A stretch of 64,000 bases of DNA from Eledone cirrhosa (GCA_964016885.1 OZ024741.1:111786001-111850000); one strand, 5' to 3'. Positions 27,227 through 33,989 are shown, counted from the first letter of the stretch. The notes: generated by a model not told the origin, from the letters alone. Translations and numbers: made by a program.

Positions 27227-29621
27227 CATATATATATATATATATATATATATATAGTATACTAGGGAGAGGATCAGGGGTGTATAACACTCCACTTATC
27301 CAGCAGGCAGTATAAGGTTAGCTCGATGTCTGAGGACAGAGCCGTGATATAATAAATAACAAAGAACGCCTATAGCATATGCATATCTTTACTTGCTAAC
27401 ATTGTTTCATCCGCACTATAAGTGGGACTCATCAGAGCATAAAGGTTAATTACATACCACACAAGCAATAACAAATCCAAGACATTGAAGAATGAAAAAT
27501 AATAGAAGATAAAGGATATTAAGGAAGTAAAAGTAAAAATAAAAATAAAAATAAAAATAAAAATAAAAATAATAAATAAACAATGAAAAATAATTGAAAA
27601 ATAAGGGGTGCTATCAGTCACAGTTGGGCGGGGTGCTGTCAACATATAGTTACATACAAGCATACACATGGATAAGAGAACAGACAAGAGTAGATAAGAT
27701 AGATAGGATTAGGTAAGAGTAGGTAAAAAATAGGTGAAAAATAGGTAAAAAATAGACTTATAATATATATAAGGAAATATAAAAAAATATAAAAAACATA
27801 CATATAAAATATACAGATAATAGTGATACAGGGTAAGGAATGAAATAAAATAATATAAAATTAAAATTAAAATTATATAAAATAGAACATAATATAATAT
27901 AATCATAAAATAGATAAAATAAGGTAAACTAAAATAAAATAAAATAGACTAAAATAAAATAATATAATATAAGATATAATTAAATATAATTAAATAAATA
28001 AATAAAATTAAATAAATAAATAAAATTAAAATTAAATAAATAAATAAATAAATAAATAAATAAATAAAAATAAATAAATAAGTAAATAAATAAATAAATG
28101 AAATTAAATAAATAAATAAATAAAATTAAATAAAATGAAATGAAATAAAATAAAATAAAATAAAGTAAATTGAGATAAGATATATATATTTTTAGAATAT
28201 ATTTCTTGAATATATCAGGGGCCCACGAAGGCACTAAGTGTCACAGTTATCAGTATCACTTGACCATTTTTTTAGAATATATTTCTTGAATATATCAGGG
28301 GCCCACGAAGGCACTAAGTGTCACAGTTATCAGTATCACTTGACCATTGCAAGGCAATGGAGGCGTCCCAGGTTGGGCAGTCTCAAAAGTTCACTCGAAA
28401 GTCACGGGTGTGCATTCACACAGTTGAGCGGTGGGGTAATCACAAACCGGTTCACACCCAGGCAGGAGTCCAATGGTCAAACAGAGGTACATCGAAGGAA
28501 GGTAGGAGAATTCACGTGCAGTAGCAAGAGGCAGACAATTGGGCCGAAAGCAAGCAGGTGCAGGCGGGTTAGCCAAAGCAAGCAGACACAGTTGGAGCGC
28601 ATACAAAAGATATATAAAAAAAACAAAAGATATATAAAAAATAGCTTCAAGAGCCAATATCATGAAGTCACCGCATTGGGACATCACAAGATTATACACA
28701 CCAATATGTTCAGCACGTATATACACATATACACACCACATGCATATGCAGAGACGGTATACATATATATATATTTTTTTATATACAGACATATACAACC
28801 ACCTACACCCATACACATATAAATGTATACACAGACACACACGCACACACACACAGCGTAGGACACCCGGGTCAAAGCTGATATTAAACACAGAAATACC
28901 ACATTAGGCAAGACCCACCACCACGGATAATACATTCAAAATAAATACATACGATGAGATGTAGTAAAATAAAATTGAATTCCTACGGAGATAATCATGT
29001 CCGCACGTGCCATTGCCCGATTTAAGTGTACACAGACCGTTAGTAACTACGGAGGGCTATCGGGGCCAAAACGTTACTTTCGGGATCATAACAACGACCG
29101 TCAATATATGGAAGGCCGATCGTGCTAGAAAGACCACAACCCCGGGCAAGAGCTCCCAGAAGTCAGCCTGTAGATCTTAAACCACAGAATAGGAGGGCAA
29201 CACGTACATGCGCCACGTATCTACTGCTTACGGCGAGATGGCACAGGTCCGCCCACAGTTACAGGCTAAATTTCTATTTGTGCAGCCTATATCACAGTAC
29301 ACGCTCTACATAGATACATTACATCATAACTCATGCGCATACAGAGGTACAGATCCGCAAGATACACGTCAGGATAGACCCACCAATGCACCAATGGTGG
29401 GTAGGCGAGCGTGGATGGGTTACATCCGCTGTGCCAAACAGGGGTGCTTATTAACATACACACCCACTCACCTGTACACCCCAATATCCAGATCAATATC
29501 CTCCCGCAGGCATACGTATACACTCACCGACTCATATACATAGAAGACAAACAATAGGAGACAGTTACACACAATAAGAGACAGTTACACAAGTTAGCCC
29601 AACTGGAGAAATAAGGAAGTG

Positions 29622-31463
29622 CTAGCTAATAGGTTTAAAGTAGAAGAAAGATCTTAATATTCGGTGGGGGCAAGAGGAAAATATTTCTGACTTTCTGTTT
29701 AGTAGAGGGCATTTAGCAAATATAATAGAGTGGGATTCGGCAAGGCATAGGTTACATACTCTATTATGAGGAGTATATGGATGGGATTTAGCAACCTGCC
29801 GCCAAGTAAGTGTGTAATGTGTTCGTGCATTTTTTAAATTGTGGACGTACGCTGCCAAGGAGGTGGAGTTCCTCAGTTTATTATGTCTAAAAGTGCACTG
29901 GTGAGAGTTAAACCTGGTCTTAAAGGGGGTGGAGGTTGATCCTATATAGGTTTTAGTGGACGCCGTAGTTACCACATCACACGCATAAACTATGTTTCTA
30001 ATAAGGCAGAAACCATTCAGGGGGCAGCCTGAAGCCCTTCTACTGTTACAATTTCTGGTGATGCTATTCTTAGAATGATCACCACTTGTGTTTCGGCCCA
30101 CTCTGTCCACTACCGTGTTTTCCCCTAGGCTTAGGTTGTCCAGGCCTTCCTTTATTTTCCTATTATTAGTAATGGCCAGATGAGAGGCCAGATTTTGGGT
30201 TGTAGAATACGAAAGTTTAACAACATTCTTATTGAGGATAGAGTGGTACCTATTACCAGGAGGGAAGTTCCTTTCTAACACAGAGAAGAAGGCCCTAGGA
30301 ATATTTATAGCCACTTCAGAGTTAAAAGGGGGGTTGAAGTATGTATTCAATCTTCTTCTATTCTTTTTATTCTTTCCATTTCCATCACTATTATTAGCAT
30401 TATTATTTCCACGGTTACTATGCTCACCTAGTCTATGCGGGGAGCTGCGAGGCCTACCATTGCTATTACTTAGACTAATGGTGCCCTGCTGGTTCATTCC
30501 ACCGGCATTTAGAAACCTCCCATTCGCGACACCTCTATTGCTATTACTTAGACTAATGGTGCCCTGCTGGTTCATTCCACAGGCATTTAGAACCCTCCCA
30601 TTCGCGACACCTCTATTACCAATGGACATATTATGTGTTATAACAACACTGGTAGAGCTACTATTAGGACTATTATTTCCCTGGGTGTAATACAATTTGT
30701 CCCTAAAGCCGGATCTAGCTAAGGCATCATTATAGTAATCAGCCTGCGAGTCAAACGCCTCCTTACTATGTGAGAGTGAACTTATTCTGTTAGATACGCC
30801 CCTCAGTATACCGCTGATGACCGACCTAGGGTGGTTAGAGTTGGTATTCACGTAAGTCAGCAATTCATTAGGCTTATGGTACGGTGTGTACGTATGGTTA
30901 TCCAAGTCTAATGTAACATCCAGGAAGTTCACAGTTCTATCATTTATATCCATAGTAATGGATAGGTTAAAGGTTTTAAAAAAGCTATGCAGCTTTTTCC
31001 TAATGCGCACTATATTATACTTACTAGTATCTATGGAGAGTAGGGCGTCATCCCGGTACAACTCGCCCCTAAGGAATGGGAAGTTACTATGCAGTTCATT
31101 GAGGAGGTATAGCCCAACTAAGTCGGTGACCTGAGCAGTGTCACTCGACCCCATAGTAATGTCAAAATTATCAGGTGTGTTTTTTCTCGTCCATAGATTA
31201 TCCTCAAACATGATAATGGTTTTACGTGCAGCGAGAACAATATCTATCTGTGGCCTTGTAATTGCCCCCCTCTGCATGGCTAGGATAAGGGCCTTATTGA
31301 GGATAATAGGAGATATAGATGTATAATAAGCATCAATATCAAATTGGATGAATTTGAGTGCGTCACGACCACAATCCGTAGAGAACCACCTAATGACTTC
31401 ACTAGTGTTACCCCAAAGCTCAAGGAAAGTTTTTTCTCTAACCAGGGGAATAACGCTATCCAA
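29622..31463 (-). CDS. Penelope-like reverse transcriptase fused to a C-terminal GIY-YIG endonuclease (N-terminally truncated)
   Basis: RT motifs FIQFDIDAYYTSI, FDITMGSSD, LYRDD, VNFLDVTL and YHKP..YVN..SNHP. EN motifs IVY...YIGST..FKTRFNSH, CNLCLAE and LLNRKSE..CPH. The frame stays open upstream (RLICPSKSDLG) to the inversion junction at about 31535. Confidence 0.93.
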   Translation of the reverse strand: MDSVIPLVREKTFLELWGNTSEVIRWFSTDCGRDALKFIQFDIDAYYTSISPIILNKALILAMQRGAITRPQIDIVLAARKTIIMFEDNLWTRKNTPDNFDITMGSSDTAQVTDLVGLYLLNELHSNFPFLRGELYRDDALLSIDTSKYNIVRIRKKLHSFFKTFNLSITMDINDRTVNFLDVTLDLDNHTYTPYHKPNELLTYVNTNSNHPRSVISGILRGVSNRISSLSHSKEAFDSQADYYNDALARSGFRDKLYYTQGNNSPNSSSTSVVITHNMSIGNRGVANGRVLNACGMNQQGTISLSNSNRGVANGRFLNAGGMNQQGTISLSNSNGRPRSSPHRLGEHSNRGNNNANNSDGNGKNKKNRRRLNTYFNPPFNSEVAINIPRAFFSVLERNFPPGNRYHSILNKNVVKLSYSTTQNLASHLAITNNRKIKEGLDNLSLGENTVVDRVGRNTSGDHSKNSITRNCNSRRASGCPLNGFCLIRNIVYACDVVTTASTKTYIGSTSTPFKTRFNSHQCTFRHNKLRNSTSLAAYVHNLKNARTHYTLTWRQVAKSHPYTPHNRVCNLCLAESHSIIFAKCPLLNRKSEIFSSCPHRILRSFFYFKPIS

Positions 31464-33684: not shown

Positions 33685-33742
33685 CTTTATGCTCTGATGA
33701 GTCCCACTTATAGTGCGGATGAAACAATGTTAGCAAGTAAAG
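33685..33742 (+). ncRNA. type I hammerhead ribozyme at the PLE terminus (mirror copy at 27387-27444, minus)
   Basis: cttta-t-gct-CTGATGA-gtcccact(tat)agtgcggat-GAAA-caatgtt-agc-aag-taaag. Confidence 0.8.
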
Positions 33743-33989
33743 ATATGCATATGCTATAGGCGTTCTTTGTTATTTATTATATATATATATATATATATAT
33801 ATATATATATATATATATATATATATATATATATATATATATATATATATATATATATATATATATATATACATATATACATACATATATATATATATAT
33901 ATATATATATATATATATATATATATATATATATATATATGTATATATATAATAATAATATTATTTATACTTATATATACATTATATAT

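Follow-up and report, generated by a model that had tools for sequence, protein, structure and literature searches.

A probable Hydra-clade Penelope-like element inserted as two head-to-head truncated copies in Eledone cirrhosa

A stretch of 64,000 nucleotides from the octopod Eledone cirrhosa (GCA_964016885.1, OZ024741.1:111786001-111850000; called the window here, with positions counted from its first letter) contains an insertion in (TA)n which most probably represents one Penelope-like element (PLE) of the Hydra clade, present as a long and a short 5'-truncated copy placed head to head, likely by two converging reverse transcriptions. The long copy runs from 31534 to 27261 and holds a truncated open reading frame (ORF), a 3' region of 2.3 kb, a hammerhead motif and a one-sided extension (tail), which together measure 4.3 kb. 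The short copy runs from 31536 to 33782, begins 33 nt past the stop codon and has no tail. The 3' ends of both copies face outward. Base 31535 was assigned to neither copy, as the ORF ends at 31534 and the arm starts at 31536. Both outer ends of the insertion meet (TA)n, and a target-site duplication is unreadable because the target itself is (TA)n.

Since the 3' region of the family is 2.3 kb long, the overlap of the two copies resembles terminal inverted repeats (TIRs) of 2.2 kb. An earlier interpretation of this DNA by a model (the sequence-only reading) had described a young PLE with an inverted arm that mimics a TIR transposon. A PLE and no TIR transposon was indeed found, but the inverted arm is a published PLE layout and no new mimicry. 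The near identity of the arms was borne out: the left arm (minus strand) and the right arm (plus strand) align over 2,223 bases with six mismatches and three indels. One mismatch lies in unique sequence (28962/32163) and five lie inside microsatellites; the indels are 20 additional nt in the left arm and twice 12 additional nt in microsatellites of the right arm. Tandem repeats make up about 856 of the 2,275 bases in the 3' region. Public contigs and reads from four sequencing runs were aligned to 29600-32750, with 24 of 474 pieces listed. Family contigs from the runs X1 and X4 hold the 20-nt repeat in two units, and a matching loose end was seen in X5. The right arm has therefore lost one unit, and of the arm differences given by the sequence-only reading the substitutions and microsatellite changes stand, whereas its duplication of about 20 bp is the family state.

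The frame from 31547 to 29622 on the minus strand is free of stops over 641 codons. Motifs of reverse transcriptase (RT) were located at 31346 (QFDID), 31154 (MGSSD) and 31058 (YRDD), and those of a GIY-YIG endonuclease at 29993 (IVY) and 29948 (YIG), with the R, E and N residues present. The stretch between thumb and FNPP measures 134 aa as compared to a median of 38 in 62 proteins. At residue 162 the protein has Glu, whereas Gly occupies this position in at least 90% of 64 aligned proteins. The copy lacks the N-terminal region as well as RT motif 1, and its first Met is residue 91, downstream of the catalytic Asp70; the focal copy is therefore non-autonomous. Judged from its sequence, it was likely dead on arrival and is likely inactive. 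The claim that the RT-endonuclease frame is uninterrupted from the junction to the stop codon is thus correct for an open frame, but this frame is a 5'-truncated and incomplete ORF.

Pfam returned no match for the focal protein, and among the 64 aligned proteins it recognised GIY-YIG in eight and RVT_1 in one. A sequence search of the PDB with a profile gave 0 matches. In the Atlas, the two halves of the protein were placed at 0.95-0.97 to RT/HTH_animal and GIY-YIG clusters. The homolog search identified 86 proteins among 8,000 candidates with about 29-47% identity, of which four carried eukaryotic labels and three of these were Argonauta or Octopus by source. A quick tree was built from 84 of 87 proteins (close homologs only, midpoint root, no outgroup); in it, the query fell into a group of eight members (SH-aLRT 100) together with the three Argonauta- or Octopus-labelled proteins and other long-linker proteins. 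This grouping makes an octopod host likely.

A single ORF with RT and GIY-YIG endonuclease, a type I hammerhead motif near the 3' end, 5' truncation, an inverted copy and a tail at one end are all found here, as is characteristic of PLEs. Passages of PMC8557442 define the Hydra clade by a C-terminal endonuclease that lacks CCHH, by CxxC and CxH around E and N, and by a (TA)n target. In the focal protein the endonuclease is C-terminal and without CCHH, has one Cys between IVY and YIG, and shows CNLCLAE, LLNR and CPH, which corresponds to the Hydra pattern CxxC..E..N..CxH; (TA)n is present at both flanks. Among the 26 homologs of at least 690 aa, DK[T/S] was found in 25, DKG in 0, a CxCx4-6C linker in 23 and CxxC..E in all 26. 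Compared by eye, the published Hydra alignment agrees motif by motif, whereas the Neptune rows do not. The element is larger than the usual <3 kb of Hydra, a trait that is descriptive and not diagnostic. Taken as part of the whole reading, these motifs make an endonuclease-positive Hydra-clade PLE very likely. The sequence-only reading had looked for the clade among Naiad, Chlamys, Neptune and Poseidon; the motifs point to Hydra, which was missing from that list. Naiad and Chlamys need an N-terminal endonuclease and no canonical hammerhead, and were rejected for the C-terminal endonuclease and the hammerhead seen here. Neptune, Poseidon and Nematis need a CCHH endonuclease and DKG; CCHH is lacking in the focal protein, and DKG in all 26 long homologs.

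Each arm carries a type I hammerhead motif about 90 nt from the shared arm end, with stems I-III present in a motif-based prediction. None of 2,000 dinucleotide-shuffled versions of the arm contained a hammerhead of the strict type I form. Rfam returned no hammerhead among 146 matches, all of which were microsatellite or hairpin noise. The hammerhead fold has -8.0 kcal/mol, and the minimum-energy fold has -13.4 kcal/mol (z -0.57); that the hammerhead is not the minimum-energy fold is expected because stem III is weak. According to part of PMC7761336, PLE hammerheads with a weak stem III may require dimers. From the stop codon to the hammerhead, 2,187 nt were counted, as compared to 971-1,468 nt in three relatives in the window and to 51-462 nt (median 161) for those related loci in which both features were found (23 of 64), a set skewed downward by short contigs. 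The distance from hammerhead to Met is 173-327 nt in eight of nine related loci, and the focal tail ends 175 nt past the start of the hammerhead. By these distances, the tail probably corresponds to the beginning of the following tandem unit, that is, its 5' untranslated region (UTR). At 26-27 kb, a non-coding element has a tail that can be seen to be the beginning of the following unit. Inverted repeats seen in nine of 80 metagenome loci could not be established as arms of pseudo-long terminal repeats (pLTRs).

The sequencing runs also gave an idea about the family. Loose ends at 31534 run on upstream in family contigs, by eye into the region of RT motif 1, and loose ends at 31536 continue as an ordinary join of ORF and 3' region. 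The 3' region 31536-32750 is common to the family in these contigs. Toward the 5' end of the ORF, summed depth in X1 drops from about 2,400 to 380, a depth that is not a copy number. The Hydra-type family at this locus is multi-copy. In the restriction site-associated DNA sequencing (RAD-seq) run X9, there was almost no depth at the junction. All features of the locus are collected in Table 1.

Table 1. Features of the insertion and its flanks (window positions)
Feature	Position	Strand	Basis or remark
Left (TA)n target flank	27228..27260	.	
One-sided 3' extension (tail), about 86-90 nt, long copy only	27261..27346	-	likely 5' UTR of next tandem unit
Left arm, 3' non-coding region of long copy	27347..29589	-	arm alignment
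Type I hammerhead motif, core start 27435, predicted cut after 27398 (GUU), short stem III	27389..27444	-	
Part of 80-nt tandem duplication in 3' region, both arms (right: 32757-32911)	28217..28348	-	
20-nt repeat unit, present in left arm, absent from right arm	28622..28641	-	arm alignment, family contigs
5'-truncated ORF: RT from just past motif 1, thumb, linker, C-terminal GIY-YIG endonuclease	29622..31534	-	motif location
In-frame insertion rich in Asn, Gly and Ser, about 111 aa (22% Asn), containing a 78-nt tandem duplication, located between thumb and FNPP	30348..30680	-	
Head-to-head inversion junction, short microhomology possible	31527..31541	.	loose ends at 31534 and 31536
Right arm, second shorter 5'-truncated copy, no tail	31536..33782	+	arm alignment
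Type I hammerhead motif of right arm, core start 33694, predicted cut after 33731	33685..33740	+	
Right (TA)n target flank	33783..33950	.	

The head-to-head arrangement could be explained as follows. The GIY-YIG endonuclease of an intact family member would nick both strands at a (TA)n site, and each nick would prime the synthesis of cDNA, with element RNA of a single source as the template. One priming would start distally and give the tail, the other about 90 nt further in. One cDNA would then stop inside the RT gene and the other 33 nt past the stop codon, and the cDNA ends would be joined via a one-base insertion or a short microhomology. Other inverted pairs in the window bear on this proposal. 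In 14 of 15 pairs, one arm ends 0-4 nt from a microsatellite and the other has a tail of 30-145 nt; the pair at 15555-15959 was the one not clearly scored. Four pairs keep Hydra ORF sequence, and the tail is on the long copy in two of them (the focal pair and 47-49 kb) and on the short copy in the other two (6-8.7 kb and 16-19.6 kb). For both pairs with a tailed short copy, each copy includes sequence absent from its partner, and therefore neither is a fold-back copy. The tails on short copies thus favour two separate primings on RNA from one source, with unequal starts and a join at the truncated ends.

As an alternative, the second arm could stem from self-priming, in which a single cDNA (or an antisense template) would fold back on itself to be copied. 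Part of PMC3846280 infers such self-priming from palindromes at inverted junctions of rotifer Penelopes. At the focal locus the short copy lies wholly inside the long one, the arms share private letters and a 5-nt match is located 4 nt from the junction; near-perfect hairpins also occur among the small pairs of the window. However, the focal junction is without a palindrome and the spacer measures 1.9 kb, and in two of the four ORF-bearing pairs it is the short copy that is tailed and not the long one. Self-priming is therefore regarded as unlikely.

The age of the insertion was addressed by the divergence of the arms, which is 0.06% (one substitution in 1,649 non-microsatellite bases; 95% upper bound 0.34%). 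A very recent insertion, as claimed by the sequence-only reading, is in line with this value in so far as the insertion is probably young, but differences between the ORF and the X1 majority complicate a simple reading. At least 16 such differences were found over about 1,910 sites (40 of 196 difference rows listed), six synonymous and ten non-synonymous, a ratio not distinguishable from neutral (p 0.19-0.37). Both arms carry the window letter at 10 of the 11 listed arm differences from family contigs. These differences and their near-neutral mix, including the Glu at position 162, would fit an older insertion whose arms were made alike later by inverted-repeat gene conversion or by assembly polishing; had the ORF differences arisen after the insertion, about 28 arm differences would be expected and one was seen. 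On the other hand, further pairs in the window diverged freely, with mismatches of 23/427, 8/123 and 6/139 (4-7%), so arms are not always homogenised, and the focal arms keep three indels. The ORF differences may also predate the insertion, from a diverged source copy or from runs of another population or species, and contigs drop rare variants. Later homogenisation of an older insertion seems quite improbable. Most simply, the insertion is recent, and the differences go back to a source that had diverged slightly or to runs of another population.

A third explanation is an artefact of the assembly, such as a fold-back read or a chimera at the repeat. Part of PMC8557442 warns that such structures trouble assemblies, and neither a contig nor a read among the 24 of 474 pieces listed spans the inversion junction. 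However, the arms end at the element's own 3' end, the flanks are not mirrored and one arm only is tailed. The arm indels match family variants, and 13 other pairs of differing age obey the same rule, which makes an artefact very unlikely. Mobilisation as a unit by inverted ends, as in a TIR-type element, has next to no probability: the terminal inverted repeats are long and near-identical, but RT and GIY-YIG occur instead of a transposase, the ends are unequal, and family contigs follow the order of an ordinary PLE and run past both sides of the junction. A TIR DNA transposon was likewise rejected, as transposase and symmetric ends are both lacking.

Several points weigh against a Hydra-clade insertion formed by two primings. 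The focal linker is CxSx5C, as in the copy at 47.5 kb, with CxCx5C in the copy at 18.3 kb; RWK and DKT would lie in the lost part of the focal copy and were observed in homologs only. The clade call was made by motifs and visual comparison. As no listed piece spans it, the junction is given by the assembly. The 15 pairs were chosen from a self-BLAST list of the window, which is not a genome-wide census, and the focal copy alone, with the tail on the long copy, fits fold-back copying equally well. The chemistry of two strands and two starts, finally, was shown in vitro for Poseidon and not for Hydra, to which it might apply by analogy.

Passages of PMC8557442 report an inverted 5'-truncated copy and a tail often 'only at one end' as typical of PLEs, and for the Hydra family Penelope-13_HM a 5'-truncated copy in inverse orientation, both strands having hammerheads. 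The Hydra clade as presented there (Craig et al. 2021) shares with the focal element the C-terminal GIY-YIG, the YRDD core, FNPP and SNHP, the absence of CCHH, CxxC..E..N..CxH, the (TA)n target and a type I hammerhead near the 3' end that often cuts after U. However, the families listed in that part measure 1.1-3.0 kb (Hydra-1_Obim of Octopus bimaculoides 2,507 bp), whereas the focal unit would exceed 5 kb. The focal element further differs by the 2,187 nt from stop to hammerhead, the 111-aa Asn-rich insertion and the CxSx5C linker, and its tail of 86-90 nt compares to 30-40 nt usually described.

Adineta vaga Penelopes, as far as covered in sections of Arkhipova et al. 2013 (PMC3846280), have inverted pLTRs with a tail on one side, microhomology joins and in-frame Asn-rich inserts between RT and endonuclease, features which recur here (the microhomology join possibly so), and their spacers of 0.9-1.5 kb before the 3' pLTR are comparable to the focal 3' region. 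These spacers reportedly consist of captured host DNA unique to copies, whereas the focal 31536-32750 is common to the family; by motifs they belong to another clade, and junction palindromes occur there and not at the focal junction. Regarding the Poseidon element of Anolis carolinensis, parts of Frangieh et al. 2024 (PMC11167929) describe a PLE protein, predicted to be a dimer, that introduces nicks into both strands, extends them and initiates at two sites bounding the tail. An AT-rich target and a chemistry for two starts would be the likeness to the focal element, by analogy; the Poseidon tail lies within the ORF start, whereas the focal tail appears before the next start codon.

The sequence-only reading had also proposed the family as a candidate driver of the system. 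This was not supported, as the focal copy lacks autonomy and likeness of its 3' end was limited to other coding Hydra copies. In a comparison to nine other hammerhead ends, one match was clearly above shuffles (0/200) and one was marginal (1/200), and both belong to coding Hydra copies. The focal element had no nucleotide match to the non-coding hammerhead elements of the window, and several families seem to make their own inverted pairs. A non-coding, retrozyme-like family was seen at 25969-27226, adjoining the left flank of the focal element, and at 45828-47090, with a unit of about 420-470 nt in partial tandem plus an inverted copy and with intact-looking hammerheads in every unit; identity is 78-80% between the loci and 94-99% within. 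Three further hammerhead motifs at 9988 (plus strand), 42149 (minus) and 45749 (minus), with a stem I of 8 bp and AUA as the cut site, seem to belong to another family.

Double-stranded RNA (dsRNA) of more than 2 kb bounded by ribozymes was another proposal. A read-through transcript is predicted to pair over 2.2 kb. However, each strand would have one sense hammerhead, fully paired with the other arm: for the 140-nt hammerhead region, about -244 kcal/mol was calculated when paired with the other arm versus -8 for its own fold. By this model, read-through RNA would not be bounded by working ribozymes.

The window contains other inverted pairs and elements. At 5990-8663, a head-to-head pair surrounds a Hydra endonuclease fragment (7155-7532, plus strand), with arms 100% identical over 477 nt and a 78-nt tandem repeat in the left arm; its short copy bears a tail of about 110 nt. 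Three older copies from a related Hydra family at 16374-19572, 33998-34614 (adjoining the right focal flank) and 47178-49445 have 3' ends 75-81% identical to each other; all three show an inverted arm and a single tail (about 100-145 nt), and their hammerhead core is CCGA in place of CUGA. Four inverted pairs with one-sided tails of 57-107 nt lie at 19730-20606, 21537-21978, 49622-50208 and 61034-61909; the pair at 49.6-50.2 kb is a 500-nt hairpin with a 25-nt loop, and 21549-21866 is 84% like 11791-12107. A near-perfect palindrome of 130 nt at 16138-16341, centred just upstream of two back-to-back hammerhead cores, has a 73-nt tail on one side. At 11640-11690 (plus strand), the short fragment IKPADKG resembles a Neptune-type PLE, a label taken from the published alignment. 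A decayed non-LTR retrotransposon (54355-57366, GC about 50%) shows endonuclease-like, RT-like and C-terminal zinc-knuckle-like frames by eye. Six copies of a short interspersed nuclear element (SINE)-like family of about 180 nt (85-97%) were identified at 1096-1278, 3094-3253, 9087-9275, 23946-24130, 37577-37763 and 63456-63622.

The element represents a new, long-tailed family, of which both the clade and the layout were known before, and as such is ordinary for specialists. In the open literature (subscription papers lying outside this search), no account was found of Hydra elements with a long 3' region in octopods or of a strict one-tail rule. Insertions with such 3' regions may be misfiled by automatic annotation as TIR elements or miniature inverted-repeat transposable elements (MITEs). 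Part of PMC13282606 counts 31 recently active PLE families in Octopus vulgaris. It is conceivable, but rather doubtful, that every PLE insertion in the genome is the product of two obligate unequal primings and carries exactly one tail, whichever copy is longer; the octopod Hydra branch with its kilobase 3' regions would thereby seed long perfect inverted repeats, provide the best natural data set for two-primer versus self-priming models and possibly be a major source of ADAR substrates in cephalopods. The one-tail rule, with the tail on either the long or the short copy, offers a simple genomic test between two-primer and fold-back models of head-to-head PLE copies, which is applicable to any good octopus assembly.

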